63,030 nucleotides of DNA from an uncultured bacterium. Its GTDB lineage: Bacteria > Omnitrophota > Omnitrophia > Omnitrophales > Aquincolibacteriaceae. This document shows positions 6,204 through 63,030 of the stretch, piece after piece (position 1 is the stretch's first letter; every line of letters begins with the position of its first letter). The position numbers and the translations under genes are program-made. A model generated the notes under the pieces. That model was not told the origin of the DNA, searched no databases, and saw nothing but the letters and a program-made list of their open reading frames with translations. The DNA lies in assembly GCA_964606385.1 (NCBI GenBank), contig CAZSFZ010000012.1:1-63030 (forward strand). Reading direction: 5' to 3'.

Positions 6204-6304
6204 AGCCCTTCACCCCAATCGAGACAGGAAACGCCAGGCGCGTTCCCGTCTTTTGTTTTAACAATCATCGGACCTATGATGACACCCATGAGCATTCATG
6301 ACTT

Positions 6305-7247: not shown

Positions 7248-7279
7248 ATATCACGCAACATTCACGGCTTCAAAGTTGA

Positions 7280-7400
7280 AAAACTCTAAACGCAAAACAC
7301 TAAACTCTAAATAACTCAAAACTCAAATCTAAAAAGAAAACCTCTTTAAATTTTGAATTTAGGATTTGTTTAGGATTTAGAGCTTAGGATTTCGGATTTA
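7280..7400. repeat. Pseudo-palindromic heptamer-repeat element
   Basis: AACTCTA/AACACTA/AACTCAA left; TTTAGGA/TTTAGAG/CTTAGGA/TTTCGGA right. Confidence 0.75.
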
Positions 7401-7407
7401 TGCGGGA

Positions 7408-8904: not shown

Positions 8905-8989
8905 CCGGAATCGCCCGCATTAAAACGTTGAAGGGAGGATTATACCCAAGGAGAGAAAATAAACCACACCGAATCTGCAAGCTCGCGGA

Positions 8990-14414: not shown

Positions 14415-14416
14415 TT

Positions 14417-15547: not shown

Positions 15548-15675
15548 AAATTCGAAGTTCGAATTTCGAAGCACGAAACAAATTCGAATATTTCAATTAC
15601 ATAAAACAAAAGCGTTTTGGAATTTTGAATTTTAGAAATTCTAGTTTGTTTCGGATTTCGGGTTTCGGATTTGGA
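15548..15675. repeat. Pseudo-palindromic heptamer-repeat element (CGAA/TTCG type)
   Basis: TTCGAAGTTCGAATTTCGAAGCACGAAACAAAT ... TTTGTTTCGGATTTCGGGTTTCGGATTT. Confidence 0.8.
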
Positions 15676-15685
15676 GCTTTTCACC

Positions 15686-16240
15686 ATGATTCCCTTTGAA
15701 ATACGCCACATTCCGGAAGTCACCTCGACCAATACGGTCGTCCTTGAGGAAGCCGCTGAGGGCGCCGCCGAAGGCTTGGTCCTTTTGACCGATCATCAGA
15801 CGGGCGGACGCGGAAAACCCGGCAATATCTGGGTCTCGCCCCCCGGCAAGAACCTGCTCTTTTCAGTGCTCCTCAGGCCCGCCCTACGGCCGGACCAGAT
15901 CCCGCTCCTGACCCAGATCGCCTGCAGGGCGGTAGCCAAAGTCCTTGGGGAACGCTATGATATTGCCACCCGGTTCAAACGGCCCAATGATGTGATGCTG
16001 GGGCCCAAGAAGATCTGCGGGACGCTTGTCGAAGCGATCTCGACAGCCTCCAGGGTCGAGGCCGCCGTGATCGGCATAGGTTTGAACGTGAATACAGAGC
16101 CTGCGGAGCTCCCTGAGGTGGGTATTTCCATGAAAATGTTCACCGGAAAGGCCTATGACCTCCGTGAAATCCTCGAATATGTCCTGGAAGAGCTAAGTGC
16201 CCGTATCACAGAGCTTTACGACACAGGAACTTTAAAGTAA
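15686..16240 (+). CDS. birA: Biotin-[acetyl-CoA-carboxylase] ligase, no HTH domain
   Basis: STN, QTGGRGK, FKRPNDV, KICGTL, IGIGLNVN. Confidence 0.9.
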   Translation: MIPFEIRHIPEVTSTNTVVLEEAAEGAAEGLVLLTDHQTGGRGKPGNIWVSPPGKNLLFSVLLRPALRPDQIPLLTQIACRAVAKVLGERYDIATRFKRPNDVMLGPKKICGTLVEAISTASRVEAAVIGIGLNVNTEPAELPEVGISMKMFTGKAYDLREILEYVLEELSARITELYDTGTLK

Positions 16241-16352
16241 TATTATCATTACCCATTTTTTATCAGTTTAATAGCATAAAGTGGGATAAAAATCATTATT
16301 TTTGCCATATTTTAGTTCATTATCCCAAATATGAATATAAGGTCATTTAAGC

Positions 16353-17111
16353 ATGATTAAGAGGATTTTAGCTGTCGATATTGGTAATACAGCGGCCACA
16401 GTAGGCTTCTATGAGGCAGGACGCCTATTGGACTTTTGCTCACTCTATTACAATGATATCCCAAAATATGTTAAAAAATTGATTGCTGGTGGGAAGAAAG
16501 GACGAATCGATATCATTATAAGCTCCGTAATCCCTAAAACGACTGATTTTTTGAAGTGTAAATTACAAAACAATAATGGGTTAAAAATATGGGGCGTAGG
16601 GGGTAACATGCCTCTTAAAATACGCCATAAATATAGCAATTACAAAGGCTTAGGCATTGACCGGAAGGTCAATATTTATGGAGCAACCCGCATGTACCGC
16701 CTCCCGCTGCTCGTCATCGACTATGGAACGGCTATTACTTTTGACTATATCGATTCCAAGGGCGTCTTCCAAGGGGGAATGATCATCCCTGGTCCGGAAA
16801 CCGCCTATAGAGCGCTTGGTGAGCGGGCGGCCCTCCTTCCCAAGGGCCTGGGGCTCCCCAGAAAGGCGAAATCCTTCCTCGGACGGAGCGCCCGGGCGTG
16901 CATGGAATCGGGCATTCTCGAGGGGTACGGGGCCATGACGGATGGGCTCATCCAGCGGTTCCGGGCGCGCTACGGAAAGAAACTCCGCGTCCTCGCCACG
17001 GGGGGCTACGCCGGGGTCATCCTCCCCTACACCAAGCTAATTGATACCGTAGATCCCAAGCACTCCATTAAGTCCTTGCTGGCTCTTTGGCGCGAGCAGG
17101 CGCCCCGCTGA
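16353..17111 (+). CDS. coaX: Type III pantothenate kinase
   Basis: LAVDIGNT, SSVIP, LGIDR, VIDYGTAITFD, GGMIIPG, ATGG. Confidence 0.93.
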   Translation: MIKRILAVDIGNTAATVGFYEAGRLLDFCSLYYNDIPKYVKKLIAGGKKGRIDIIISSVIPKTTDFLKCKLQNNNGLKIWGVGGNMPLKIRHKYSNYKGLGIDRKVNIYGATRMYRLPLLVIDYGTAITFDYIDSKGVFQGGMIIPGPETAYRALGERAALLPKGLGLPRKAKSFLGRSARACMESGILEGYGAMTDGLIQRFRARYGKKLRVLATGGYAGVILPYTKLIDTVDPKHSIKSLLALWREQAPR

Positions 17112-17149
17112 TCTTCCACCCTGGTCTGGAAGCCTCTCAAAAAATTTCC

Positions 17150-17177
17150 TTGATTTTCCGCGGCTGCTGAATACAAT
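17150..17177 (+). promoter_or_regulatory. Sigma70-type promoter of the groE operon
   Basis: TTGATT-16 nt-TACAAT immediately upstream of the CIRCE. Confidence 0.65.
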
Positions 17178-17186
17178 ATCGCCTCG

Positions 17187-17213
17187 CTAGCACTCGAAAG
17201 TTTTGAGTGCCAG
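17187..17213 (+). promoter_or_regulatory. CIRCE element (HrcA operator)
   Basis: CTAGCACTC-N9-GAGTGCCAG versus consensus TTAGCACTC-N9-GAGTGCTAA. Confidence 0.88.
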
Positions 17214-17319
17214 ACCTTCGAAGTAACCCGAATTATCAATCAAAAGGTCATTTCAAGCGGTGTCCGCCTCCGGATCCCTGAAGGGTCCCGGAAGAGGTTA
17301 TTCGCTCCGCGCGAGATGA

Positions 17320-19014
<1,695 letters not shown>

Positions 19015-50289: not shown

Positions 50290-50363
50290 AAAAAACCGCC
50301 ACTGACTTTTTCGTCAGATGGCGGCCCGACCATCGCTTGCTCTCCGGAAATTTTCCCGGACCC
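50290..50363 (-). promoter_or_regulatory. Probable nhaA-I/DUF1646-like Na+/Li+ riboswitch with overlapping intrinsic terminator
   Basis: Minus strand GGGT-CCGG(hairpin)CCGG-AGA-GCAAGC-GAT-GGTCGGGCCGCC, whose CCGCC is also the 5' arm of terminator CCGCCATCTGAC-GAAAAA-GTCAGTGGCGG-TTTTTT. Confidence 0.62.
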
Positions 50364-50562
50364 GTTTCAGATTTAGAGTCGCATTTTGTCCTGTTCCCTC
50401 AAGAAGGTCAAGCGTTATCGGCAGCTTGAGTGCTCAGCTGACCTGGGGGTCAGGCTCGTCTCAATTCCCAAGATGGCTCCCCCGGATGGGCTACAGCAAA
50501 CTGATTGTAAACTCGGCCCCGCACGCAGGAAGGCATCGGTTTCATACTGATTAAGGGTAAAA

Positions 50563-50600
50563 TAAAAATGCCGAAGACCTGAAGGCCTCCGGCATTTTTT
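50563..50600. terminator. Bidirectional terminator, presumed original tRNA-Asn terminator
   Basis: AAAAATGCCG-AAGACCTGAAGGCCTC-CGGCATTTTT directly beside the left att repeat. Confidence 0.8.
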
Positions 50601-50603
50601 ATA

Positions 50604-50615
50604 AATGGCTCCCCC
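50604..50615. repeat. att core, left junction
   Basis: AATGGCTCCCCC, antisense of GGGGGAGCCA(TT). Confidence 0.88.
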
Positions 50616-50711
50616 TGTTAGACGCATTTAAGAACCCTACTCCTGACTTCAAACTGATAATAAACGCATTAGGAGAGCAGTTCAAAAACACTTTCGTCCT
50701 TGCTGCTTAGC

Positions 50712-52523
50712 CTACTTGAACTTGGAAAGTTCCGTATAAACTTCCATGAAAAGGGGCGAACCCGTAAAGGACAAAGGGGACACTGGCCCAAAAAACATAA
50801 ATGGGAATTTACCGTTACTGCTAGGATCGATAAATGATTTGTATAATTGAATCGCTGAAGGATTGTTTACGAGCTCGGAAACCTTTTTCAATTCTGACCC
50901 TGAGGTGAGCCCATACCCGAATCCGAAAATGCGCATTTGTTTCAAAATTTCATCATTCAAAGATTCCAATGTTTGCGTGATAAACATGTAACCAATGCCA
51001 TATTTCCTTGTAGTTCTTACGGAATTGATGATTTCCCTTGTAAGTTCTTTTATTCTTTCGTCGAGCGCTCCCTCAGAGATAAATTTGTGCGCTTCATCCA
51101 TAACGATCAGGCAATTAGCCCGTTCGTTCTTGGCGTATAAATCAGCGCCAACTTCCACGACCTTGCACTCGATCACTTTTATAAACAATGCCTGCACATT
51201 CTCGTTCTCAATTTCACCTGCTTTTGCGCCACTAACATCCAATACGATAAAATTTCCCTTCTCTTTGACGATTTTATGCACTAAATCGTCCACAGACAGC
51301 TTAGTTTGTCCGGAAGCCTTTGTTTTCTTGAAGAAGTCTAAAGCGGCGTTCCATTTTTTGAGAACCGATGTCTGAGTAGCTAAATTAGCTAGTACCTCTT
51401 GGCATCGTCCGAGAAGTCGGTTTCTTGTTGCAGTCGTTCCATAAATCGCTTCAACGTATACCGTGAACGTTTTTCCTTGCCTCGTTTCATCTTGGCTTAA
51501 AGTAACAAAACGAGTAAGAAGATCCCTAAGCAATGCCGTGCTATCTGTAATGCTGTTCAGATTAAAGGAAGGGTTATTGGCTCTCCCGAAGAGATAATCC
51601 ACCACGGCATCGCGCGCCGCCTCTATTTTATCTTCCGTGTACATTGGCCGAAAAGCATCTTCAATGAAGCCAAGATTGGTAAGCAACTGTCCGAGAATTT
51701 CAAATTCTTTTCCCGGTAAATAGATGTCCGAAAGGATTTCGTACTTTGCGTACTTCATTCCCGCGGCAGTAATTCGAGTTTCCAGCTTTGTACCACCCGG
51801 AAGTAATTCTTGGTCGGAATAAAACTGCCTCTGGGGATCAAGAACAAGAATGCTCATGCTTTTCTTGTTTTTTGCGTAGCCCAAAAGAGTATAAGCAGCT
51901 GTTACGGTTTTGCCTGAACCGGTTTTACCAAAAATTCCTATATGATAAGCATCGCCAGCCCCCGCTTCCCGTATTGCTGGATCAGTTTTCCCAAAATGCT
52001 TGAACCAAAACGGTAAATCCACATCGGTGCCATAAACCTTCCCCATATAGGTAATCTCAGTTTCATGGGGCTTCATTAATGAAGTCATTACTTCATTAGT
52101 CATCTTACCAACTTTTTCTCCCGTAGAGGGGGAGGTTCCAAGGATGTATCCGATGGGCGCCGCATCATTCAGAGCATAACAGGCTTGGACACTGATGGTA
52201 GCAACACGGTTATCTGCCGTTCCGCTCAGATGCGGAAGTTTTCCATGCCGCTTAATTACGCCCTTAAAAGACGGATCTTCATGCCAACGGTTCTGTGTCT
52301 CAATTGAGATAATTTGCCCGATAACAAGAATGGGCCAGCCGTCTTCTTCTACAATGACATGAACCATTTGCCCCAATGCTCTTTGAGCCTTACTCTTTTC
52401 AGAAATATCTATCGTAATGTCAAGAGTAGTACTGGGCGAACCCGTGATTCCTAGGGTTGCGGTGCCCTCTTTCTTGATAATGTCGAGAAGCTCTTGGGAA
52501 ACAGTTTTCCGGGATTGTTCCAT
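50712..52523 (-). CDS. herA: HerA-family ATPase/helicase (HAS barrel + DUF87-type core)
   Basis: HIGIFGKTGSGKT, LIVMDEAHKF, RKYGIGYMFITQ; N-terminal GQMVHV..ILVIGQI. Confidence 0.88.
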   Translation of the reverse strand: MEQSRKTVSQELLDIIKKEGTATLGITGSPSTTLDITIDISEKSKAQRALGQMVHVIVEEDGWPILVIGQIISIETQNRWHEDPSFKGVIKRHGKLPHLSGTADNRVATISVQACYALNDAAPIGYILGTSPSTGEKVGKMTNEVMTSLMKPHETEITYMGKVYGTDVDLPFWFKHFGKTDPAIREAGAGDAYHIGIFGKTGSGKTVTAAYTLLGYAKNKKSMSILVLDPQRQFYSDQELLPGGTKLETRITAAGMKYAKYEILSDIYLPGKEFEILGQLLTNLGFIEDAFRPMYTEDKIEAARDAVVDYLFGRANNPSFNLNSITDSTALLRDLLTRFVTLSQDETRQGKTFTVYVEAIYGTTATRNRLLGRCQEVLANLATQTSVLKKWNAALDFFKKTKASGQTKLSVDDLVHKIVKEKGNFIVLDVSGAKAGEIENENVQALFIKVIECKVVEVGADLYAKNERANCLIVMDEAHKFISEGALDERIKELTREIINSVRTTRKYGIGYMFITQTLESLNDEILKQMRIFGFGYGLTSGSELKKVSELVNNPSAIQLYKSFIDPSSNGKFPFMFFGPVSPLSFTGSPLFMEVYTELSKFK

Positions 52524-52528
52524 GTGCC

Positions 52529-53737
52529 TTAAGTCCTATAGTTAAACAACAAGTTGAATTTACCCTTATCGATTTTTAAATCTTCTGAGAGCTTAATGGC
52601 TTCTTGAATAGCGAACATACCACCAGAGATACTTTTCGCCATGAGGTCTACTAAAAATTGAGGATAGGGTTCTCGGATTTCCGGGAAAACAATCTGCTTT
52701 TTAAGACTAAGCAAGCATGTCTCAAGCCTTTTTTGATCCAATGCGAGAGCTTTTTTCATTTCGATACGATAGGCTGGGCCATCTTGGTAAGGTTTAAAAT
52801 AAGTAAAATAAATCTCGGATTCTTTTTTCTTCAACGTAAAAACATCCTTTGTCCTTAGCGGATTAATTGCTTTCTTTAAAGCTTCATTAAGATCGTTCTT
52901 TTCTGGAATATTAAGATTGCAACGAATATGAAGATCGTCCCAAATTCGCTCTCTTTCATCCTGACTTTGACCCACTGGCAAAGGCTTTAGGTATTCATCT
53001 TCCGCCAAAGAAAGTGAAAAAAAAGTTCTATCATCCACCTTCACAGCGTGCTGAGCCAAGAAAGCATCCAAGACATCTCGTGAAGAGCTGTATTTGGCCA
53101 AAGCAATGATCTTTTCGTCATTAAAGGCCGCCTTGATAATTTCCGGTATATCGGGAATGATTTTCTCATAAGTTTCTTTTAAAAACTCACGGAGCGCATT
53201 CGCGTATTCCTGCGCAGAAGTGTTCTCATCTTCATTAGCGGATAGCATGCTGTTAATTTTTAAAAGTGGCGTAAAATGCGTTCCATCCATAATCCTAATT
53301 TCATGGCTTGCTCCAGCAAGAACGCTTAACTCCATCAGAAACATGATGCCTTGGCCCAAGCGAGCATTCGCTTCGTTGTGCGAAAGTGCCGTTTGCCACT
53401 GGTAATACTGATTTTTACCTTCTTCCCAACCCTTGTCTGTGTCCTCAGTTAAACCTTCCACCCCAACAGCAACGGCAAGTAAAAGATCGCTTCCTGTCAT
53501 TTTTTCAATAATTATACTTCCGTCAACAGCAACCAAAGAGTTAGAGAAAATATCGGTTTTTAGAATAGCGATTTTCCCAGTGTCCCGCAGTTCTCTAATT
53601 GCAGCCTGAATGGGTTCATCTTGGATATCAAACATTTTGTTCATTTTCTCAACTGTAACTGGAACATTATCCAAGATCTTGGCTAATAACTCGTCCGGAA
53701 GATATGCGTAGTTCCGTTGTTTTACCTCTTCGCTCAT
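52529..53737 (-). CDS. nurA: NurA-family nuclease
   Basis: LVAVDGS, IRIMDGT, ALAKYS, YPQFLVDLMAKS; ATG 53737 overlaps the upstream TGA. Confidence 0.82.
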   Translation of the reverse strand: MSEEVKQRNYAYLPDELLAKILDNVPVTVEKMNKMFDIQDEPIQAAIRELRDTGKIAILKTDIFSNSLVAVDGSIIIEKMTGSDLLLAVAVGVEGLTEDTDKGWEEGKNQYYQWQTALSHNEANARLGQGIMFLMELSVLAGASHEIRIMDGTHFTPLLKINSMLSANEDENTSAQEYANALREFLKETYEKIIPDIPEIIKAAFNDEKIIALAKYSSSRDVLDAFLAQHAVKVDDRTFFSLSLAEDEYLKPLPVGQSQDERERIWDDLHIRCNLNIPEKNDLNEALKKAINPLRTKDVFTLKKKESEIYFTYFKPYQDGPAYRIEMKKALALDQKRLETCLLSLKKQIVFPEIREPYPQFLVDLMAKSISGGMFAIQEAIKLSEDLKIDKGKFNLLFNYRT

Positions 53738-54891
53738 AAAGTTTCCTGAATTATATTTTTGCACTTACGAAGGTTGTAAAAGATTTGCCGTTTAAAAGAT
53801 TCCGCGTTAAAACGTTGGAAGTTTTCATTTTTTTGTATGCGTGGTAAAGCCCACCGGTTTTTCCAAAAGTCTGATAGCTCTTCAATGGTGCGATGGTGCC
53901 ACAAGGGCCTCACGTCATTTTGAATTACGTTCTTCAAATTTTTAGCGAAAGGGAAAATATAAAGGGCGCGTTTAACTCCGTGATCAACTCCGTTTGTAAT
54001 TCCTAATTTTTCTAATGCTTTGTCAATTAATCGCATTTTGCGAGAAGGCCCATTCCCAAAGCCCCGGTCTAGCTGACCATCTTCTTGTTCTAAAAAGGAA
54101 ACCATTTGCTCATAGAGCGTATTGGGAATGTGAAAGGAACCGCTGCCGTTTGTATAGCCAATAAATTCTGCGATTGGAAACCCCGCATATTTTAATCGAT
54201 TGTAAACACTGCTTTTGCCATAAGCCCCAGTAGTTGTTATAAACAGAAGCCGGGAAGGTAGGTTTCTTTCTTTGATAATAGTTTTTTGGTTCTTATATTT
54301 TTTTTCAAATGTTTCTCTTACGATCTCTGCTGTCATCAAGGAAGCAACAAGTTTTCCCCCGAGGATTGAATTATATGGAGGCAGTGCGCCTAAACGCTGA
54401 GCGCTCAAGGATTGATTTACCCAATAATCTCTTTCCTTATGCGTAATGCCTAAATGTTGATCCCGAACGCTCCAGCTTAAAATCGGGCTTTGAAGACCAA
54501 TTAAACCTATGGGCGCATTGTGGTAATCATCCCAAACAATGAATCGCATTTGGCGGCCGTAGGCCGGATCATAAGGCAAACTCCACCAGACTAAATTCCA
54601 CCAACGAAATAGATCTGCAGTACCTGTTTTTGAGTCTACTAATATTAGCCGGGGTTTTATATTTGCTACATTCAAATCACGGCCATTGAGAATTAGATTC
54701 TTATTTTTTTTTAGATATTCGCGGATAAATTCTTCATGAGAGACTATACGTTCTGCCTTGGCGAGGGAATGAACTGCTCTTCTTGATTGGCGGGTATCTT
54801 TTTTTAAAGTAAATCCGTTTTTCGCAAGCGAATAGCCTTGCTTTTCAACGAGAAAGCGTAATTTCTTTTTTAGACTTGCAGCAGCTATCAT
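53734..54891 (-). CDS. DUF4338 / Druantia DruA-like protein
   Basis: WSLPYDPAYGRQMRFIVWD, IGLIGLQSP, RD..LG, RLGALPPYNSILGGKLVA, LFITTTGAYGKSSVYNRL, GYTNGSGSFH. Confidence 0.8.
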   Translation of the reverse strand: MIAAASLKKKLRFLVEKQGYSLAKNGFTLKKDTRQSRRAVHSLAKAERIVSHEEFIREYLKKNKNLILNGRDLNVANIKPRLILVDSKTGTADLFRWWNLVWWSLPYDPAYGRQMRFIVWDDYHNAPIGLIGLQSPILSWSVRDQHLGITHKERDYWVNQSLSAQRLGALPPYNSILGGKLVASLMTAEIVRETFEKKYKNQKTIIKERNLPSRLLFITTTGAYGKSSVYNRLKYAGFPIAEFIGYTNGSGSFHIPNTLYEQMVSFLEQEDGQLDRGFGNGPSRKMRLIDKALEKLGITNGVDHGVKRALYIFPFAKNLKNVIQNDVRPLWHHRTIEELSDFWKNRWALPRIQKNENFQRFNAESFKRQIFYNLRKCKNIIQETL

Positions 54892-55006
54892 TTATTACCT
54901 AACATTTGAATCTGTAATTAGATAGCGAATTATACTACTATTATTGGTGCAGACCCATGATTTTCCAATCCATGGGTTCTTTTTCAAAGAGGAAAATATC
55001 AATAGA

Positions 55007-55978
55007 TCAACCCTTGTGCGGAACCGCTTTTTGAAACAAAATTCGGTTGTTCCGGGTTGCCCAAAAGGCTTGCTGACGCTGACCATCGGTAAAGCAAGCG
55101 TAGTGCTCAGGCGAAGATAAAACTACCGAATAGGCGCTCCGAGTTAACTGTTCCGCCTGCAGGACGATCCACCAATAGGACTTCCAGATCGTATCCCCAT
55201 CCCCCAAATCCTTCAGATGGTCCAAGCGAGACTTGAGAAAGAAAATATTGTTAATGATCGCAGCCGCCTTACTCGGCGACAAGAGCTTGGGCTGGTCCTG
55301 AGGCCAGAAACACTTGATCCGGGATAGAAAATATTCTTTCTGCCGCCCTTCCGGTGAGCAGATAAGCGCCTCCAGTGCCAGAATGAAGCAAGTCAACCGG
55401 TGCCGAATGTCGTATTCTTGCAACCCACGACAAAAAAGATCCACCCCTTCCATGAAACGCTTGCTTCGATCACAAGCCTCCTTACCGCAATGCAATGGGA
55501 TCAGCTTAGCTGCGAAATCGGTCCACCGGTAAAAGATCTCTCGGGTCAAAGGACGATCATTCTTGCCGGAGCCTTCTGTGTCGAACCAGCCAGACTCTTT
55601 AAAAGACTCACTAAGCTGCCAAATCCCGCTCTCAAGGCGGCTATACAAGAAATAAGCCTCTAGGTGACACCCAAAAGAAAAGGCGATCTTAAGGGCCTGC
55701 CAGTAGTCAGAAGGCCAAGAAAGCGCCTTTCCATCATCAGGGATATCCTTTTCAACCGTTACGACCCATTGGCGCGTATGGCAAAAAGAATCAACATGCT
55801 GCTCCCATCCCCGTGTTCCCAGCCGGGCCTTCCACTCTTCGCGCGCGAAGGGCGCCATGAAAGCATCTATGTCTTTAACAAAATCGATCGACACACCCGG
55901 GGCAACGTCAAAATGGTCTGCTCCGGTCTCGTTTGGCGCGTCAGTCTGTATAATTAAAAGTCCGATCGCTTTATTCAT
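55007..55978 (-). CDS. HEPN (ApeA/Apea-like C-terminal) domain protein
   Basis: RLTCFILALEALI ... IFFLKSRLDH; the HEPN Rx4H position reads KSRLDH. Confidence 0.5.
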   Translation of the reverse strand: MNKAIGLLIIQTDAPNETGADHFDVAPGVSIDFVKDIDAFMAPFAREEWKARLGTRGWEQHVDSFCHTRQWVVTVEKDIPDDGKALSWPSDYWQALKIAFSFGCHLEAYFLYSRLESGIWQLSESFKESGWFDTEGSGKNDRPLTREIFYRWTDFAAKLIPLHCGKEACDRSKRFMEGVDLFCRGLQEYDIRHRLTCFILALEALICSPEGRQKEYFLSRIKCFWPQDQPKLLSPSKAAAIINNIFFLKSRLDHLKDLGDGDTIWKSYWWIVLQAEQLTRSAYSVVLSSPEHYACFTDGQRQQAFWATRNNRILFQKAVPHKG

Positions 55979-56008
55979 GCGGGCGCTCTCGAATTAACTG
56001 GGGGAGGA

Positions 56009-56587
56009 TTATATAATTTTCAGCTTACTAAGTATCAACAAAAGAAGATAGATGCTGCCAAGAATAAGGGCGATTTTAATAAGGGCGTCCTTTGAAGACG
56101 CAACATCCTTGATGAATTTGAGCAGCTTCAGGGTCGTAGGCTTGAGTGATTCGTCGATCGCAGAGCTGAGCGATTTCAGTATCACTGGCCGTTCACCGAG
56201 ATAACGAATAAAAATAAATAGCGCAACAAGAATAAATACTGCTAAAACCATTCGAGGAGAAATCTCCAAAACTTCAAATATTTTGCGAGCTTTTTCCCTT
56301 CTGCCTCGGTAGGCTTCCAAAGACATATTATTGCGTTTAGCGTTCAGAGAATCCTTGGCTATGTCTTCTTTGGCGAAAACGTCATATATGTTTTCGTTTT
56401 GTCGAATCGCAGGCGGGGTTACCGCTGCCTCAGACCCTTCAATCGCGGGTTGAAGACCAAAGAAATGTTTAGCAATGCGTTCTTCCCCAAAGCTGGAGGA
56501 AATAATTAGCAGGCAAAAAAAGACAGCCCCGAGCGTCCATAAAACGTAAAAGAATTTTTTGTGCTTGGTTAGGAAGGGATCGGTCAT
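56009..56587 (-). CDS. Hypothetical membrane protein
   Basis: Three hydrophobic segments; start placed at MTDPFL, overlapping the upstream stop. Confidence 0.55.
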   Translation of the reverse strand: MTDPFLTKHKKFFYVLWTLGAVFFCLLIISSSFGEERIAKHFFGLQPAIEGSEAAVTPPAIRQNENIYDVFAKEDIAKDSLNAKRNNMSLEAYRGRREKARKIFEVLEISPRMVLAVFILVALFIFIRYLGERPVILKSLSSAIDESLKPTTLKLLKFIKDVASSKDALIKIALILGSIYLLLLILSKLKII

Positions 56588-57057
56588 ACGCCCCTTGTCA
56601 AAATCGCCTGCTCTCCAAAAGTCTGTTTTACCCTTTTGGAGAATTTGAAATACAAAAACCAAACAGAGGCTGTAAACACGGTCATAATCCTGCCGATAAT
56701 GAAATTGCTTAATGCACCATTTGAGGGGATAGTCTTAGTAAATACTAAAAAGAAACAAGCTGTCAGGGAAAGCGTGCAAGCAATCACGCCGAAAAGGAGT
56801 ACCCGCTTCGCTTGGCACGCCGCAGTGGGTTTAAGTTTGAACAATCGATAGGCAACTATGAGCTGGAAAGCGCCATACCCCATAATCGCTACCGCATCTA
56901 GCATGAGATAGGTCATCATGACTGACCATGATTTTGAAAGCACCAAATCGTTGAGCAAAGATCCGCTGCGAAAAAAATTCAATATCCCGCCTAAACCACA
57001 TACAAAGACAAAAAAAGCAAGCCATCCACCAATATGCGTATAACGTACTTCGTTCAT
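56584..57057 (-). CDS. DUF2569-like membrane protein
   Basis: IGGWL at N-terminus; W..YF..SKRVK.TF at C-terminus. Confidence 0.75.
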   Translation of the reverse strand: MNEVRYTHIGGWLAFFVFVCGLGGILNFFRSGSLLNDLVLSKSWSVMMTYLMLDAVAIMGYGAFQLIVAYRLFKLKPTAACQAKRVLLFGVIACTLSLTACFFLVFTKTIPSNGALSNFIIGRIMTVFTASVWFLYFKFSKRVKQTFGEQAILTRGV

Positions 57058-57089
57058 GACGTCCTCCTTCGCCTCGGATGCGTATGGCG

Positions 57090-57569
57090 CTACTGAAATA
57101 TCTTTTTATTTGGATCTTGGATATTTGATTCGGTGTAGATGTAATTGCGCATAGACTTGAAAATCTCTTGCGGCCAGCTCTTCTCGGTCATATCGCCCCA
57201 GAAACCAAGATCTTTTGACCCTTGAACAAGGATCTTTACGGAGCTGCCATCCGGCTCCTCTTTGATGTAAACGCCTGCGACAATGTTCCAATCGTATTTC
57301 GTCATTCCGTGTTCCCCGATCGCAACGGCTTCATCGTAGTTGGCTCTCTTGATTGTAAAACCGGCATCGGAAAGCCCAGATTTGGCAGCAAGGTAGGCGG
57401 TGCGCTTATCGACACCCTTCAGAAAAAAAACTTCTTCATACTTCGACCAACCGGTTCGGCCCTCATTGGCCGGATTAAAATTGACGTTTCGCGCAGATTG
57501 GGGCATGGAATTGATTGAGGTACAGCCGGTGAGCAAAATAAGCGAAAGTAAAAAAAGCGTGCTTTTCAT
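57090..57569 (-). CDS. Lipoprotein of unknown function
   Basis: Lipobox LLTGC. Confidence 0.75.
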   Translation of the reverse strand: MKSTLFLLSLILLTGCTSINSMPQSARNVNFNPANEGRTGWSKYEEVFFLKGVDKRTAYLAAKSGLSDAGFTIKRANYDEAVAIGEHGMTKYDWNIVAGVYIKEEPDGSSVKILVQGSKDLGFWGDMTEKSWPQEIFKSMRNYIYTESNIQDPNKKIFQ

Positions 57570-57580
57570 GTAGGAATTTT

Positions 57581-57640
57581 ACCATCTATGGATGGTTTTT
57601 GGAAGAGCTGCAAGATCCCATAATACCATCCATGGATGGG
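57581..57640. promoter_or_regulatory. Paired palindromic operators in the lipoprotein/XRE divergent promoter
   Basis: ACCATC-TATG-GATGGT (57581-57596) and ACCATC-CATG-GATGGG (57625-57640; covers the XRE ATG). Confidence 0.65.
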
Positions 57641-57853
57641 TACATTTGTCGCAAGCTGGGAAAGCGGATAAGAGAACTAAGGGATAAGCATGACCTTACT
57701 CAAGAAGAGCTGGCTGCACGTGCAGATATTAGCTTGAAGTACCTTCAAAATCTTGAAGGGAAAAATCCAAAGAAAGCCACCGTCGTTACTTTAAGCAAGC
57801 TTGGAAAAGGTTTCGGTCTTCCTCTTTGGAAGTTTCTAAAATTCCCTCAGTAA
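57632..57853 (+). CDS. XRE-family HTH regulator (C-protein-like)
   Basis: LGKRIRELR..HDLTQEELAARADISLKYLQNLE. Confidence 0.9.
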   Translation: MDGYICRKLGKRIRELRDKHDLTQEELAARADISLKYLQNLEGKNPKKATVVTLSKLGKGFGLPLWKFLKFPQ

Positions 57854-58160
57854 GCAGGTTAATTCTTTCCTCAAGATCCATTGGGCTAACCGTAGGTTCC
57901 GAATTTGCTAGAGATCCCATCCTTATTTCACTCTCGTTGTACTGAGGCGGTTTCCCCCAACCCCGATCCAGCAATGCGAGAGATGCCTGAATACGTGCCG
58001 CTTTAGTCGATTTCGGATCGTTCATGATCTCGACCAACGTGTTGATAGCCGCTTCTGTGTGCTCCCTCGCCTTATCCCTGATCGTTATGGCTACCTTAGG
58101 ACGTCCATTCGGATTACCCGATTGTCCCGGTTTAAACATTCCTGCGTGTCTATTCTCCAT
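57786..58160 (-). CDS. DUF5681-domain protein (terminase small-subunit-like N-terminus)
   Basis: FKPGQSGNPNGRPK; LLDRGWGKP; GGAGG RBS before ATG 58160. Confidence 0.75.
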   Translation of the reverse strand: MENRHAGMFKPGQSGNPNGRPKVAITIRDKAREHTEAAINTLVEIMNDPKSTKAARIQASLALLDRGWGKPPQYNESEIRMGSLANSEPTVSPMDLEERINLLTEGILETSKEEDRNLFQACLK

Positions 58161-58228
58161 TGTCCCCACCTCCATGGATATTCTATACTAGTACATTAAA
58201 TTCTTGGATAAGAAAGATGTGGTGATTA

Positions 58229-58864
58229 GTGGAAAAAGGCAATGAGAGATTCGACAGAGAACAGGCTGAGAGAAAACAGGCTTGGGACATACTCCAAAAC
58301 ATCCCTGAATTTATAGCAGACCGTAAAAAAGCCAGTGAATTTAATAAAATCAAAGACCAAAACAAAATCAAACAACTGAAAAAGAAATGGGGCTTTTATC
58401 CTCTAGAAGATATTTTAGAATTCACTGACGCCTTTTCAAAATACTCGGTCATAGCGAATCGGTGGGGAAAAGCAGTCGATTTCCATGGCGTAGATATGTT
58501 TTCATTAAACGCTTCTGAGCAATTGGTTGCCCCCGAAGGAAGTCCATGCAAGGGCAAATCCCTCCTTCATAAAATCGATGTCACCATCGATATAACAAGA
58601 TCGGACAGCGCTATTTTGGATGAATTAAGAACAGGAATTGATAGCATACGACGCATTTTTAAAACAAAAATAACGCCAAACAAAAAGCATGACCATTTGG
58701 AATTCTTGATAGGTTTATTGATCGGCATCGGTCTAACAGACGCTGAAATACACGAGCGGCTCACGCCACGCAAGCTATTAAAGCTTGCCTATGATCATGG
58801 GCAGCGAAAATCCCACCGAGAAAAAATTCAAGAACGGTTGAAAACTAGGCGGAAAAAAGTTTAA
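58229..58864 (+). CDS. Hypothetical protein
   Basis: 211-aa open frame; no recognised motif. Confidence 0.5.
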   Translation: MEKGNERFDREQAERKQAWDILQNIPEFIADRKKASEFNKIKDQNKIKQLKKKWGFYPLEDILEFTDAFSKYSVIANRWGKAVDFHGVDMFSLNASEQLVAPEGSPCKGKSLLHKIDVTIDITRSDSAILDELRTGIDSIRRIFKTKITPNKKHDHLEFLIGLLIGIGLTDAEIHERLTPRKLLKLAYDHGQRKSHREKIQERLKTRRKKV

Positions 58865-58914
58865 TTTCTTTCCGCTCCACAGCAGCATTCCTTGCCATTT
58901 AAGATTGTCGCATT

Positions 58915-59244
58915 ATGGAAAACGCGGCAATCAACTTATCAGATATTCAGATCATTCCAATCAAGCCTCGCGATGGCCTTTTGGCCTTCGTATCTTTCCT
59001 ACTTAATAGCCAGTTTTTCTGCGGGAATATAGCTATTCACTCCCGCCCTGATGGCAATCTCAGACTTGTTTATCCGCAAAAACTTCTTCCGAATGGAAAA
59101 ACCATTAACTGTTTTCATCCCGTGGATCAGCAGGTAGCAAATACAGTTTTAGAACAGGTTTCAGATGCTTATCTGCACCTTATTTCAAAATGTGGCCAAA
59201 ATGCGACTATTTGTGAGGATCGAGATGAGACCCTTCGAAAATAA
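58915..59244 (+). CDS. SpoVG-like nucleic-acid-binding protein
   Basis: IQIIPI..GLLAFVSF.L...F....IAI....DG.L.LVYP......FHPV pattern. Confidence 0.7.
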   Translation: MENAAINLSDIQIIPIKPRDGLLAFVSFLLNSQFFCGNIAIHSRPDGNLRLVYPQKLLPNGKTINCFHPVDQQVANTVLEQVSDAYLHLISKCGQNATICEDRDETLRK

Positions 59245-61195
59245 TCCCCCATTGAAACCGCAGCACACCACGAACAGCGCAAATATTCCTGAGGAATTGA
59301 AAAAGCTCTCTCAATGGGTCGGCTTCAATTTTGAGTGGGATGCAAAAAGAAAGAAGTGGAAAAAAGTTCCATATCAAACCAATGGAAGACGGGCCAGCAC
59401 AACAAATCCGACGCATTGGAGTTCCTACAAAGAAATTGAATTTTACGCATGCTCTCTTGAAGCTGCCGATGGAATCGGTTTTGTATTTACATCAAAAGAT
59501 CCTTATTGCGGGATTGATTTAGACCATTGCGTTGATCCTACAACTAAAGAAATTTCATCATGGGCACTTAAATGGATCGAGCTATTTTCATTTTCAGGCG
59601 CTTACATGGAATATTCGCCATCTGGCACGGGGATCAAAATTTTCACAAAAGCAAAACTTCCATTCCATGGCCGAAAAAACGGCGACATAGAAATATACGA
59701 TCAGGCGCGCTATTTCACGGTTACTGGGAACGTATACGGATTATGTCAAAAAGAAATCCCAAACCAGCAAGCTGCTGTGGACCAACTCCTCGATGAGGTT
59801 TTCAGTAACCAGCCTAAAACAACCACTAATAAAATCGCGCCACTGAGCGGCAATGAATTAACGAGCGAAGAACTCAACTTGCTCATCCAAAAAGCTAAAA
59901 AAGCAGAAAATGGTGAAAAATTTTTAAAACTTTTTAACGGTGATTATGAGGATTATCACAAATCACAATCGGAGGCTGATGCCTCACTGTGTACCATGTT
60001 CGCCTTTTACACGGACTGCAATGAAATGGCGATTGATCAGTTGTTTCGAGAATCACATTTATACCGTGAAAAATGGGAGCGACCTGATTATCGGACCGGG
60101 ACAATCAGAAATGCTATCGATTTCTACAAAAAATCAAGAAACAAGCTGTTCGCTGACAGCATTGTTTCGCCAGACAAATCCCACCTCGAAAATGTTGAGC
60201 CTTTACCTCTTATCCACATAGTAGATGTAGAAGAAAAGGACTTAGAATTTCTAGTCGAAGGTTTGTGGGTTCTTGACAGTGTTGGCTTTATTTCTGCTCA
60301 GCCCAAATCTGGAAAAACATGGCTTTCGTTGGAAATTGGGATTAGCGTTGCTTCAGGCACAAACGCCTTCGGCCATTTTCCATCCAAGCGAGGAAAGGTT
60401 ATCGCGTTTAACGCGGAAGATGATCCCGCACGAGGTACGCGCCAACGCATAGCCGGTCTTTGCGCATCCAAAAAGCTGGCTCTCAAAGACATCGATTTTC
60501 ATCTTATCAATGTTCCTTCACTACTAATCGACGATACGGAGACACAAAAGCGGATTGAAAAAACTGTTAGTGATCAAAAACCCGCCCTTATCATTCTCGA
60601 TCCTCTCTTTAACTTGCATTCCAAGGATGAAGACAAATCCAAAGAATTATCAGAAATATTACATTTCTTACGTCTACTAAATCGCACTTACAAGTGTTCG
60701 ATTCTGCTTGTTTGCCATGATAAAAAACCATCTGGCAACAAGAATCAATCTACGCGACGAGAATCTCAAACGCGAGGATCAAATTCTTTGGAAGGTTGGG
60801 CCGACAATCTTATTTTTGTTGATGATGAAGACAAAACTAACGCGATTTCAAGAGTATACATACGCCACCGAAACGCACCGCTGACAGAGCCTTTTTACTT
60901 CCAGCTCCTTACGGAAACCCAAGATAAGAAAATTAAAGTAGCCGCTCTCCATAAAATGGATTCACAAGGTCTATTGTTTCAAAAAGATCTTAAGCTCCAA
61001 CAAATTATTACAACTGCTATGAGCGGAAAAGGCGCCATGCGAAGAGATGACCTCCGCAGCCAATTAAAGATTAGAAAAAACGATTTCGATGTAGCTTTTA
61101 ACGCAATGATTTGCTCCGGAGAAATCATTGAACTTGTTGATGAAAAAGATAAAAGAAAAAAGCGGTATCAATACCGGAGTTCAACGGGAACTTGA
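59225..61195 (+). CDS. Primase-polymerase / RepA-type (AAA_25) helicase fusion
   Basis: KKVPY, GIGFVF, GIDLDHC, EYSPSGTGI, EIYD..RYFTVTG; SQSEAD..L, LYREKW; AQPKSGKT, IILDPL, RGSNSL. Confidence 0.88.
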   Translation: MRPFENNPPLKPQHTTNSANIPEELKKLSQWVGFNFEWDAKRKKWKKVPYQTNGRRASTTNPTHWSSYKEIEFYACSLEAADGIGFVFTSKDPYCGIDLDHCVDPTTKEISSWALKWIELFSFSGAYMEYSPSGTGIKIFTKAKLPFHGRKNGDIEIYDQARYFTVTGNVYGLCQKEIPNQQAAVDQLLDEVFSNQPKTTTNKIAPLSGNELTSEELNLLIQKAKKAENGEKFLKLFNGDYEDYHKSQSEADASLCTMFAFYTDCNEMAIDQLFRESHLYREKWERPDYRTGTIRNAIDFYKKSRNKLFADSIVSPDKSHLENVEPLPLIHIVDVEEKDLEFLVEGLWVLDSVGFISAQPKSGKTWLSLEIGISVASGTNAFGHFPSKRGKVIAFNAEDDPARGTRQRIAGLCASKKLALKDIDFHLINVPSLLIDDTETQKRIEKTVSDQKPALIILDPLFNLHSKDEDKSKELSEILHFLRLLNRTYKCSILLVCHDKKPSGNKNQSTRRESQTRGSNSLEGWADNLIFVDDEDKTNAISRVYIRHRNAPLTEPFYFQLLTETQDKKIKVAALHKMDSQGLLFQKDLKLQQIITTAMSGKGAMRRDDLRSQLKIRKNDFDVAFNAMICSGEIIELVDEKDKRKKRYQYRSSTGT

Positions 61196-61212
61196 TACCG
61201 GAAGTGCATTAT

Positions 61213-61245
61213 TTCCAGTACCCTCCCTTATAAAGGGTACTGGAA
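61213..61245. repeat. Perfect 12-bp inverted repeat downstream of the primase-helicase
   Basis: TTCCAGTACCCT-9 nt-AGGGTACTGGAA. Confidence 0.7.
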
Positions 61246-61322
61246 TACTATATAGAGGTAATCTCTTGAGAGAGGCTCTTAAAAAGCAATTGGGCTTTTG
61301 TTACGAGGAATGGGGCGCCTCT

Positions 61323-61454
61323 GTGAATTCGCAGGAATTAGACACCTCAGCCAATTCCTTATTGTCCTTTGTGTCCCTCCTCATGGAAACTGATCAAAAG
61401 AACGGATTCCAAGTCCTAAAATCATCCTTTAATCCTAAAGATCATAATGAATGA
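61323..61454 (+). CDS. Small hypothetical protein upstream of the recombinase
   Basis: GTG start; MNSQELDTSANSLLSFVSLLMETDQKNG..., the 3' part of ORF-track 61128..61454. Confidence 0.35.
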   Translation: MNSQELDTSANSLLSFVSLLMETDQKNGFQVLKSSFNPKDHNE

Positions 61455-61523
61455 CGAGCACCACTTATTTGCATAAAATAGATACTGCTAACAGAGTGAT
61501 AACAGTAAAGAAGCGGAGAAAAT

Positions 61524-63030
61524 GTGAAGGCTATCATCCTTGCCAGAGTTTCCACAGAAGAGCAAATGGTGGAAGGGCAATCCATCCCTGCCCAATTAGC
61601 CAAAGCCCGCCAATACGCTTCGCGCAAAAAACTTGATGTTAAAAGTGAGTACCAGTTTGATGAATCTTCCTTAAAAGATAAGCGCACGAAGTTCGAGCAA
61701 GTCACCGAGGAAATCCAGAAGGCTGCTGAGCCCATAGCGCTTATTGTGGAAACTATAGATCGACTGCAACGGAGCTTTAAAGAATCTGTCTCATTGGATA
61801 ATTTTCGAAAAGAAGGTCGCTTAGAAATTCATTTTATTCGCGAAAATCTTGTTATCCATAAAAGCTCCAATAGTTCCGAACTGACCCGATGGGATATCGG
61901 CGTTCTCTTTGCGCGAAATTTCGTCCTTCAAATCAGTGATAATGTTAAAAGAACCATTGAGCATAAGCTTAAGAATGGCGAGTATCCTTCGCGCGCACCT
62001 TATGGCTATTTAAACATCACCAATGAAGATGGCAAGAAATGGATAGCGCCTGATCCTTTAGCCTCCAAGATGGTAGCCAAAATTTATGAATGGTATGGCT
62101 GCGAATCATTTTCGATGGAAGATATCCGCGCGAAGTTAAAAAACGAATTTGGTCTTACTTTTAGCAAGGGTAAAATAGATTTTATTCTGAAAACGCCATT
62201 CTACTATGGTGAAATGCTCTTTGATGGGAAGTTGTATCCGCACAAGTACCAATCTATTATTTCCCGCCAAATGTGGGATAACGTGCAAAGCGTTAAGGCC
62301 GGCTTCCATAAGAAGCCATGCAAATTTGGTGGATTGCCTTATTTATACCGTGGCCTCTTAAGATGCAGCCATGATGGTCATTCTTTTACCCCGGAAAAGA
62401 AACGCAAGAAGAACGGGCGCGAATACATTTATTACCATTGCACCCAATATAGCGGGAACCACAATACGGCTTGGATCCGAGAAGAGGACATTACGCGGCA
62501 ACTTCAAGAGGTCATTTCGAATATTTCGATACCTGACGCCATTGCTGCCGAAATAAGCACTGCCTTGAAAGAATCGCATGAAGGCAAGAAAGAGTATTAC
62601 AACGAGGTTTATGAGGGCCTGCAGGCCGAATATAAGCGTTATGAGATGCGCTTAGAGAAGATATATGAGCATTTCTTGGATAACCAGATTTCGGAAGCAG
62701 AATACGCAAAGTACAGGAAACAGTACCGTACAAAGCAGGAAGATATACAGAGCAAACTAAACAATCTTCAACGCGCTGATGACAATTACTACGTTACAGC
62801 TACTTATGTTTTGAAGCTTGTCCAAAAAGCAGCTGATCTCTTTGAAAGTTCTGAACCTATTGTAAAACGGCAAATTGTGAAACTGTTACTTCAGAACTGT
62901 GAAGTAAAAGATGCAACTCTAGTCCCCACAATAAGAAGCCCCTTCCACATGTTCGTGAAAGGGGCTTCTCGTCTAGAATGGCTCCCCCGCCTGGGATCGA
63001 ACCAGGGACACTGCGGTTACGGTCTGACTT
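61524..63030 (+). CDS. Large serine recombinase (resolvase + recombinase + Zn ribbon + coiled coil); reads through att into antisense tRNA, no stop in window
   Basis: Absent from ORF track. GTG 61524 after GGAG; AIILARVSTEEQ, SIPAQ, DRLQR, APYGY, LLRCSHDG...YYHC; in frame with EWLPRLGSNQG at 62976 onward. Confidence 0.93.
   Translation, partial: MKAIILARVSTEEQMVEGQSIPAQLAKARQYASRKKLDVKSEYQFDESSLKDKRTKFEQVTEEIQKAAEPIALIVETIDRLQRSFKESVSLDNFRKEGRLEIHFIRENLVIHKSSNSSELTRWDIGVLFARNFVLQISDNVKRTIEHKLKNGEYPSRAPYGYLNITNEDGKKWIAPDPLASKMVAKIYEWYGCESFSMEDIRAKLKNEFGLTFSKGKIDFILKTPFYYGEMLFDGKLYPHKYQSIISRQMWDNVQSVKAGFHKKPCKFGGLPYLYRGLLRCSHDGHSFTPEKKRKKNGREYIYYHCTQYSGNHNTAWIREEDITRQLQEVISNISIPDAIAAEISTALKESHEGKKEYYNEVYEGLQAEYKRYEMRLEKIYEHFLDNQISEAEYAKYRKQYRTKQEDIQSKLNNLQRADDNYYVTATYVLKLVQKAADLFESSEPIVKRQIVKLLLQNCEVKDATLVPTIRSPFHMFVKGASRLEWLPRLGSNQGHCGYGLT
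62977..62988. repeat. att core, right junction
   Basis: AATGGCTCCCCC. Confidence 0.88.
62979..63019 (-). tRNA. trnN: 3' part (positions 36-76) of tRNA-Asn(GUU), interrupted at 35/36
   Basis: TAA-CCGCA-GTGTC-CCTGG-TTCGATC-CCAGG-CGGGGGA-G-CCA, exactly 41 nt; T arm perfect; G73 and acceptor end are Asn-like. The anticodon's first two bases are not visible, so identity is inferred. Confidence 0.75.

Follow-up and report, generated by a model that had tools for sequence, protein, structure and literature searches.

A DruA-NurA-HerA gene triad recurrent in uncultured bacteria, a candidate mobile defense cassette

The minus strand of a 63,030-nucleotide stretch of contig CAZSFZ010000012.1 (assembly GCA_964606385.1, from an uncultured member of the Omnitrophota; hereafter, the window) carries three intact, co-oriented, and translationally coupled open reading frames (ORFs). 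They span positions 50712-54891 (∼4.2 kb) and code for a DruA-like protein with the DUF4338 domain, a NurA-like nuclease, and a HerA-like ATPase of the FtsK/HerA superfamily. The same triad recurs, almost unchanged, in ∼100 uncultured bacteria. Guilt by association and homology to the DruA protein of Druantia type I make protection from phages or plasmids the most likely role of what appears to be one horizontally mobile functional cassette.

The first gene, druA (53734-54891, minus strand), starts with ATG and encodes a 385-amino-acid (aa) protein recognized by Pfam (PF14236) and by the DruA model of PADLOC. Its stop codon TGA (53736-53734) shares the tetranucleotide ATGA, in the context tttATGAgcg, with the start codon of nurA (53737-53735). 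The nurA gene (52529-53737, minus strand) codes for a protein assigned by a Pfam match (PF09376) and by its fold; its length of 402 aa is counted from the ATG, whereas the ORF lister places the start at an upstream GTG, at 53764. The TAA codon of nurA ends at 52529, and the ATG of herA (50712-52523, minus strand; 603 aa; DUF87 in Pfam, HerA/mad8 in PADLOC) starts at 52523, which leaves a 5-bp gap (52524-52528) between the two genes. The preliminary description of the locus had given both this gap and the ATGA overlap (53734-53737), and rereading of the sequence returned exactly the same coordinates. Its conclusion that three co-oriented genes coupled in this way form an operon stands, as do its domain assignments (DUF4338, NurA, and HerA), all of which were recovered with Pfam and PADLOC. 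The nurA start codon is preceded by AGGAAA, and AGGT is found 7 nt upstream of the druA start codon. In a consensus scan, promoter-like sites were no more numerous in this region than in shuffled sequence; the only sensibly placed ones are weak hexamer pairs (54940-54987, minus strand; 9 of 12 matches) in the 115-bp spacer 5′ of druA. About 115 nt 3′ of the herA stop codon, the minus strand contains an intrinsic-terminator-like hairpin with a U-run (50556-50598). The RNA fold of 50565-50630 on this strand includes a hairpin of 15 bp (total of −27.8 kcal/mol, z = −4.9 relative to shuffled sequences), followed by TTTTATTTT. This hairpin, which a simple terminator scan did not pick up, probably marks the end of the operon.

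The DruA protein of the window matches PF14236 with an E value of 1.5e-65 and aligns end to end with the 407-position PADLOC DruA model PDLC00002 (2.9e-94). Its best plasmid matches are annotated as DruA and show ∼34% identity over ∼94% of the length. The canonical reference is the DruA protein of the Ralstonia pUW163a druABCDE locus, where it heads a textbook druA-B-C-D-E operon that includes an 1,851-aa helicase. Because the window protein is 34% identical to this one over 94% of its length, it can be considered a full-length homolog of Druantia type I DruA and not a mere domain match. On plasmids, a search for triad-type DruA yielded only proteins with identities of up to 36%, which belong either to Druantia type I or to half-length archaeal and Rhodobacterales forms. 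Database searches returned 1,242 relatives at E values of ≤1e-10; the best 120 of them are all ∼385 aa long, 54 to 74% identical, and come from hosts in unrelated phyla, with identity staying at 50 to 60% across distant host groups. Within the DruA family as a whole, for which ∼1,459 clusters were counted among 1.84 billion representatives at 50% identity, the triad-type DruA is a narrow clade that accounts for a handful of the clusters. Across 37 triad loci, 81 DruA residues are invariant, and the conservation profile shows a GNAT-like core (approximately residues 85 to 320), which ranks with the best-conserved portions of the cassette, flanked by variable N- and C-terminal regions.

The AlphaFold2 (AF2) model of DruA has a pLDDT score (predicted local distance difference test) of 85. 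In a Foldseek search of the PDB, its top matches were GCN5 and other GNATs (E of ∼0.03, probability of 0.95); nearly all of the top 50 were GNATs, with E values of 0.03 to 1 and template-modeling (TM) scores of ∼0.5 on the target. The invariant residue pair G179-K180 comes after the strand formed by residues 161 to 169. DUF4338 has been assigned to the GNAT fold by the Aravind group as well (PMC10853773), and the model makes this fold likely for the DruA of the window. The preliminary description had raised a GNAT/Mom-like fold for DUF4338: the GNAT half of this proposal was recovered, albeit with the weak E value just cited, and the Mom half was not, Mom being absent from the Foldseek matches in the PDB.

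NurA of the window matches PF09376 at 4.7e-8 (33 bits; the gathering score is 21), and none of the models in PADLOC-DB 2.0 matches it. Sequence searches of the PDB, either with phmmer and the single sequence or with a profile of 31 sequences, retrieved nothing, so that the link to solved structures came by fold comparison alone. With an AF2 model of NurA (pLDDT of only 69), the eight best Foldseek matches were to the NurA of Pyrococcus furiosus and the HerA-NurA of Thermococcus kodakarensis; the P. furiosus structures 3tai, 3taz, and 3tal and the HerA-NurA complex 9x1m were matched with E values of 3e-8 to 7e-7 and a probability of 1.00. Four acidic residues of NurA are invariant in the 37 loci: D72 (in the AVDG motif), E136, D151 (MDG), and D364. 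In the HerA protein, Pfam recognizes the DUF87/HerA central domain (4e-9), along with weak matches to T4SS-DNA_transf, TrwB, and Zot. The best PADLOC scores, to the HerA and mad8 models, are ∼1e-13 (3e-13 for mad8); the matches to the HerA models as a group range from 3.7e-13 to 4e-2 and are weak and partial, covering mostly the C-terminal half. Its nearest solved relatives are TdpA (8wet), DUF4297-HerA (8xau), and Sir2-HerA (8wiv), followed by Sulfolobus HerA (4d2i), with weak scores of 5e-4 for 8xau and 4e-3 for 8wiv. The Walker A motif G196-x-F-G-x-x-G-S-G-K205, the Walker B residues D476-E477, and the arginines R503/R506 are invariant. The catalytic motifs of NurA and HerA are intact, and their invariance suggests that both proteins are active enzymes.

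Recurrence of the triad in other genomes, proposed as a check in the preliminary description, was assessed from both ends of the gene set. A DruA-anchored pattern scan, which covered one genome per species (185,579 species) and profiled all ORFs of the loci, gave 46 loci, all of them in metagenome-assembled genomes of uncultured organisms. The hosts include members of the Patescibacteria, Gammaproteobacteria, Nitrospirales, Bdellovibrionales, Omnitrophota, Brocadiales, Phycisphaerae, Planctomycetota, Zixibacteria, Ignavibacteriales, Thermodesulfobacteriota, and Eubacteriaceae. Of the 40 loci in which the downstream DNA was long enough, 39 have NurA and HerA adjoining DruA; the order DruA-NurA-HerA is co-directional in 38 of them, and the remaining one (L021) has a convergent NurA-HerA pair. 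A NurA-anchored scan of 80 metagenome loci gave the same picture, with DruA upstream in 60 of the 61 loci that had room for it and HerA downstream in 56 of 56. The triad was also present in all 8 further contigs that were found by exact protein. Given these counts from the DruA- and NurA-anchored scans, the adjacency goes far beyond chance and marks a conserved functional unit. The pairwise identities of NurA and HerA across the loci correlate closely (Spearman coefficient of 0.89), and the correlation of DruA identity with that of NurA or HerA is lower (0.57 to 0.62). In locus L004, DruA is 57% identical to that of the window, yet NurA and HerA are only 24% and 32% identical, respectively. 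These values argue for a NurA-HerA complex accompanied by a more autonomous DruA.

The few deviations from the rule are instructive. The sole DruA-anchored exception, L046 (10001-14915), has a DruA with 48% identity and no NurA-HerA; this DruA faces a convergent pair of genes that encode an 852-aa protein combining a serine/threonine kinase with an ORC/Cdc6-like ATPase and a 401-aa protein without a family match, which suggests an alternative back-end for DruA. The sole NurA-anchored exception, L120 (1-5440), carries NurA-HerA, and the 2.6 kb over which the contig extends upstream contain no DruA; it lies in an AT-rich element that also contains an ORF for an AlpA-like excisionase. A second architecture of the same DruA-NurA-HerA association is apparent in L143 (238-4323), where a 557-aa fusion of DUF488-N3 with DruA (42% identity) is encoded next to a convergent HerA and a partial NurA. 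In the complete genome of “Candidatus Zeuxoniibacter abyssi” (L051, 9950-14140), frameshifts split DruA and HerA into two ORFs each and NurA is intact; the cassette is in decay there. Solitary DruA homologs are found in viruses as well. One of them (L142, 6350-9149; 46% identity) is encoded directly after TerS/TerL in a phage-like contig. The only kind seen in GenBank phages is a distant DUF4338 protein, encoded in the lytic T4-like Pelagibacter phage Mosig (L144, 4551-5849) next to genes for a 2-oxoglutarate-dependent oxygenase, peptide deformylase, and MazG. Strong matches to the DruA fold in BFVD come from the giant viruses Faunusvirus, Yasminevirus, and Dasosvirus, uncultured tailed phages also have structural homologs, and DruA-like proteins of Synechococcus phages have been mentioned in the Phold preprint.

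The surroundings of the triad were surveyed with Pfam and PADLOC in ∼230 proteins encoded within 4 kb of it at 36 loci, with the 25 most frequent families of each batch listed; these are counts without a background comparison, so any association with defense genes is to be taken qualitatively. No gene besides the three is conserved across the loci. DNA methylases top the list of recurrent Pfam families, which also includes domains of serine recombinases, AAA_15/AAA_21 (OLD/AbiEii-like) ATPases, and ResIII; EcoRV, DpnII, and PD-(D/E)xK nucleases are also found, and the rest are housekeeping proteins. Other long neighbors include MetH, 2-oxoglutarate dehydrogenase, ribonucleotide reductase, UvrD, and methylases. 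PADLOC recognized type II and type III methyltransferases, AriA-, AbiL-, NsnB-, and SoFic-like proteins, and some that resemble MADS components; its mad2 and mad3 models match several neighbors, with no coherent set of MADS genes among them. In L054, the triad is preceded upstream by a type III restriction-modification (RM) pair and followed downstream by genes for an OLD-TOPRIM ATPase and a PD-(D/E)xK nuclease, and the element that carries them also has a terminase and a serine recombinase. A type ISP/IIG methylase-nuclease gene ends 27 bp before druA in L057 and 5 bp before it in L059; a Shedu SduA_C gene lies near the triad in L057, and PIN-MazE in L060. Large serine recombinases, distantly related to that of the window, are encoded beside the triad in at least 8 other contexts (L002, L004, L006, L011, L015, L033, L054, and L057). 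No Mre11/Rad50 pair was found in the window or among the ∼230 neighbors of the 36 loci, although a single Metallophos neighbor could be missed. On two points that the preliminary description had listed for checking, the survey has the triad often adjoining RM and other defense genes, in the qualitative sense only, and not tied to mre11/rad50 repair loci. The presence of RM, OLD-like, Shedu, toxin-antitoxin, and recombinase genes, combined with the lack of an Mre11/Rad50 pair, conforms to the pattern of a defense cassette. In some lineages, such as those of L057 and L059, functional coupling of the triad with RM enzymes is possible.

Some of the neighboring genes deserve a separate mention. In L029, the triad is located between genes for a 905-aa (6244-8961) and a 1,089-aa (14278-17547) protein, both of which contain N6_N4 DNA methylase domains. 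A linkage to Mre11/Rad50 through SMC_N matches was considered and dismissed: the one in L033 is to a 755-aa SMC-like protein that stands alone, at a distance of over 3 kb, and the other matches are below the threshold. A small HTH_3 protein was similarly considered as a fourth conserved component and rejected, as its gene adjoins the triad in L001, L002/L047, L004/L012, and L045 only and the nearest one in the window is 2.7 kb away.

In the window itself, the mean GC content changes at ∼50.5 kb from ∼0.56 to ∼0.42 (from 0.55-0.58 to 0.39-0.47) and stays low to the window end. To the left of this island are host-like genes that code for a P-type cation ATPase (911 aa), an amino acid permease, and two SPFH proteins. 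The low-GC element contains membrane protein and lipoprotein ORFs (within 55007-63029), an HTH_3 gene (57599-57853, plus strand), a DUF5681 gene (57786-58175, minus strand), and an SpoVG-like gene (58915-59244, plus strand) that overlaps the start of a 676-aa ORF (59165-61195, plus strand). The product of the latter combines the helical bundle domain of NrS-1-type prim-pols with an AAA_25/DnaB-like helicase and is likely the replication protein of the element. A large serine recombinase (Resolvase, Recombinase, and Zn_ribbon_recom domains) is encoded on the plus strand from 61509 to the window end (63029), where the ORF remains open. Since this low-GC stretch carries a helicase, HTH and DUF5681 genes, and a serine recombinase, the triad can be placed at one extremity of an integrated element, in accordance with its original portrayal as the cargo end of an AT-rich one. 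Apart from the distantly related serine recombinases, none of the element genes of the window has a homolog beside the triad elsewhere. The ORF directly upstream of druA (55007-55978, minus strand; 323 aa; GC content of 0.51, above that of the rest of the island), which has no family match, was rejected as a part of the system, there being no Pfam or PADLOC match and no homolog at other triad loci.

The ends of the element show several additional features. The last ∼50 bases of the window (62978-63030, plus strand), which the serine recombinase ORF overlaps, read, in reverse complement, as the 3′ half of a tRNA-like sequence, with the T-arm CCTGG-TTCGATC-CCAGG and the acceptor CGGGGGA-G-CCA; ARAGORN missed it because it is incomplete at the window end. 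Twelve-base copies of its 3′ end, ATGGCTCCCCC[G/T], are located at 50473-50490 and 50605-50622, i.e., at the GC break. They may represent att repeats that bound an element of ∼12.4 kb, with the caveat that 12-mers are expected to occur a few times by chance. Just outside the island, an Rfam match to the nhaA-I (Na+) riboswitch (50316-50363, minus strand; 37.8 bits, with a gathering score of 37) has a terminator-like hairpin after it, and a 111-aa ORF and the two SPFH/Band-7 genes are located downstream.

The genomic data lean, if not by much, toward a self-contained defense cassette in which NurA-HerA is the DNA-degrading effector and DruA is its discriminating or regulating partner. By analogy with the solved HerA-NurA complexes, the HerA hexamer would serve as a double-stranded DNA translocase that feeds the NurA dimer, and the pair would digest DNA processively from ends or nicks. 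The genomic context points to foreign DNA as the target, and homology and context point to DruA as a specificity or licensing component. The HerA-NurA complex of T. kodakarensis digests both strands from the ends, and it has been suggested, without proof, to take part in antiviral defense, as have the nurA-csm6-herA clusters of Pyrobaculum (PMC12977600).

The role of DruA is the least certain part of this mechanism. The favored possibility, although on balance a doubtful one, is that the cassette works in the manner of RM systems, with DruA writing a non-methyl mark on the resident DNA and NurA-HerA destroying unmarked incoming linear DNA. Marking is favored by the conserved enzymatic core of DruA with its more variable N- and C-terminal regions, by the combination of DruA with alternative back-ends (DruB-E, NurA-HerA, and the kinase-ORC protein), and by the solitary copies in phages, which are reminiscent of orphan methylases. 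It is also favored by the organization of Druantia type II, which reportedly has a methylase, DruM, in the place that DruA occupies in type I. Finally, the triad and Druantia type I have the full-length DruA in common, and an unexplained DNA modification has been reported for the latter: expression of that system produces a PacBio “m6A” signal at CAGCTGNC, and none of DruA-E has a methylase domain (10.1101/2024.04.14.589459). According to the same preprint, a phage anti-Druantia gene alters the modification of phage DNA. A more daring and quite tentative proposal is that DruA is a sequence-directed DNA acyl- or acetyltransferase that writes a non-methyl self-mark and represents the missing modification component of Druantia type I. 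Such an enzyme would be combined with at least three back-ends (DruB-E, NurA-HerA, and the kinase/ORC-like ATPase), and the orphan copies in phages would counterfeit the mark.

A number of observations weigh against the defense role or against marking by DruA. The core of the cassette lacks an endonuclease for the first cut and an obvious DNA-recognition domain. No DNA substrate has been demonstrated for any DruA, and protection by the triad or any of its members is without experimental support; a full-text literature search found no report of protection from phages or plasmids by the triad. The modification attributed to Druantia comes from a single preprint that is not peer reviewed and does not specifically implicate DruA. 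The GNAT assignment is weak, as already noted, and DruA shows no evident Q/RxxGxG/A motif of the canonical kind. With a mean pairwise identity of 53%, DruA is more conserved than is usual in a specificity determinant. Under a strict RM logic, NurA-HerA without DruA, as in L120, would be toxic to its own host. The association with defense islands is of a qualitative kind, with no background for comparison, and in many loci the neighbors are plain housekeeping genes. Lastly, no triad-type DruA was found in the 2.9 million viral contigs of IMG/VR, a result that is neutral with respect to defense as such but leaves it without support from prophage hotspots.

A GNAT-like fold would also suit another type of defense cassette. 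Here, DruA would be an acyltransferase directed at proteins or small molecules that senses infection and switches on NurA-HerA, or else a second, abortive-infection effector that acetylates proteins of the host or the phage or charged tRNAs, and self would be told from non-self only by the loading of NurA-HerA on free DNA ends, in a RecBCD-like manner. This alternative is seen as rather unlikely, but it agrees with several of the data. The DUF4338 domains fused to DndF have been interpreted by the Aravind group as protein-targeting co-effectors (PMC10853773), HerA-NurA depends on DNA ends, which the linear DNA of an incoming phage has (PMC12977600), and two HerA systems of other kinds, Sir2-HerA and DUF4297-HerA, are inhibited by the end-binding protein Gam (10.1101/2024.04.14.589459). 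The divergence of DruA tracks that of NurA and HerA only moderately, and L120 apparently tolerates NurA-HerA alone. However, proteins that sense phage proteins usually evolve fast, in contrast to the DruA core; solitary DruA genes in lytic phages or next to a terminase fit DNA- or virion-directed enzymes better than a suicide effector; and the modification signal that depends on Druantia type I would be left unexplained.

The other two alternatives abandon cellular defense and are less likely than the protein-directed acyltransferase because of the points that speak against each of them. It is improbable that the triad serves the mobile element that carries it, i.e., its replication, recombination, or transfer, its addiction or stabilization, or the exclusion of competing elements. 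The elements that carry the triad do frequently contain genes for large serine recombinases, prim-pol helicases, ParB-methylases, or a terminase; ATPases of the FtsK/HerA superfamily pump DNA in conjugation and packaging, and the window HerA has those weak matches to T4SS-DNA_transf, TrwB, and Zot; and the Aravind group has noted the mixed mobile-element and defense character of HerA/FtsK neighborhoods (PMC10853773). However, the flanking element genes differ completely from locus to locus whereas the triad stays constant, the replication and integration genes of the window lack counterparts beside the triad elsewhere, save the distant recombinases, and at many loci the genes within 4 kb of the triad are of the housekeeping kind and none belongs to an element. 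Exclusion of competing elements, moreover, amounts to defense. The fold of NurA, the motifs of HerA, and the name given by NCBI to members of the family (“DNA double-strand break repair nuclease NurA”) would all be expected of a housekeeping machine for the resection of double-strand break ends, like those of archaea and Deinococcus, with a regulatory acetyltransferase added to it. Such a function is nevertheless very improbable for a gene set that is present in only 46 of the 185,579 species genomes, is scattered across phyla, resides on a low-GC island in the window, is pseudogenized in one complete genome (L051), has no Mre11/Rad50 (SbcCD) linked to it among the ∼230 neighboring proteins, and cannot be connected to solved repair NurA or HerA by sequence searches.

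Druantia type I is a strong and widespread system with an enigmatic way of telling self from non-self, and among its components DruA is the one understood least. In the triad, this protein comes in obligatory association with a nuclease and a motor of structurally solved mechanics, which argues that it is a portable front-end module and not a helper specific to DruB-E. With three genes in 4.2 kb, the triad is also a compact system for dissecting the role of DruA. If the defense cassette is real, NurA-HerA, so far seen as a repair machine, becomes a bona fide bacterial immune effector. This candidate is concentrated in uncultured lineages, notably the Patescibacteria (candidate phyla radiation), that were not sampled by screens based on Escherichia coli or Bacillus genomes. 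Were DruA indeed a writer, the triad would be the minimal and most tractable member of a new class of RM-like immunity.

Among the known systems, the triad shares with Druantia type I a full-length DruA as the product of the first gene, the status of a mobile accessory system, and the succession of DruA and an ATP-driven DNA motor. However, DruB, DruC, DruD, and the ∼1,850-aa YprA-family DruE are absent and are replaced by NurA and HerA. DruE, a large helicase of the YprA family (DUF1998), is the signature of all Druantia types. The absence of DruB-E genes, noted in the preliminary description, is evident from the lack of PADLOC Dru matches in NurA, HerA, and ten flanking proteins and of any ORF longer than 911 aa in the 44- to 63-kb region, hence of any DruE-sized gene; the 911-aa ORF is that of the P-type cation ATPase. 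In 39 related loci, there is no DruE downstream, and HerA ends the module; DruB, DruC, and DruD are likewise absent from the related loci. Without the DruE that defines Druantia, the triad falls outside these systems. It resembles the archaeal and bacterial NurA-HerA pairs (P. furiosus, 3tai; T. kodakarensis, 9x1m; and Deinococcus radiodurans) in the NurA fold, the acidic residues, and the adjacent herA gene, and the mechanics are probably those of the known complex, in which a hexameric motor feeds a nuclease dimer (PMC12977600). In contrast to the repair-type pairs, sequence similarity to which is undetectable for NurA and marginal for HerA, the triad is patchily distributed, horizontally transferred, and headed by DruA in nearly all loci (60 of 61 in the NurA-anchored scan). 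Without linkage to Mre11/Rad50 and outside the core genome, it does not qualify as a repair-type NurA-HerA.

The combination of an ATPase of the HerA family with an effector in a short mobile operon is likewise found in Sir2-HerA and DUF4297-HerA (“Her” of Gao, or Nezha) and in TdpAB, and the nearest solved relatives of the triad HerA come from these defense systems (8wet, 8xau, and 8wiv), although the matches are weak and partial. The triad differs from them in having NurA as the effector instead of Sir2, a DUF4297/Cap4-like protein, or TdpB and in having DruA as a third obligatory gene; no Sir2 or DUF4297 match was found by Pfam or PADLOC beside HerA in the window. In DndFGH and other “HerA/FtsK capture systems” (PMC10853773), a HerA/FtsK translocase captures the DNA of the invader and passes it to a nuclease, as might be the case here. 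DUF4338/GNAT domains are fused to DndF in some of these systems (PMC10853773), GNAT and HerA co-occur in BRC systems (PMC12839542), and the kinase/ORC-Cdc6-like ATPase that accompanies DruA in L046 is a component typical of HerA/FtsK capture systems. However, the self-contained set of three genes includes no DndF, DndG, or DndH, PglZ, BrxC, or TGT, and NurA is not mentioned in the main text of either PMC10853773 or PMC12839542.

The likeness to RM systems with a non-methyl mark, such as that of Mom, is by analogy only and consists in a GNAT-like enzyme encoded together with a nuclease. Mom of phage Mu is a GNAT-fold DNA adenine carbamoylmethyltransferase. The full-text literature search found no publication that links NurA with Druantia or DUF4338 with NurA, DUF4338 itself came up in only four papers, and neither this search nor PADLOC-DB 2.0 revealed a DruA-NurA-HerA system, in agreement with the initial impression that no system of this composition had been described. 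The triad is best described as an addition to the HerA-anchored, Druantia-related defense landscape.

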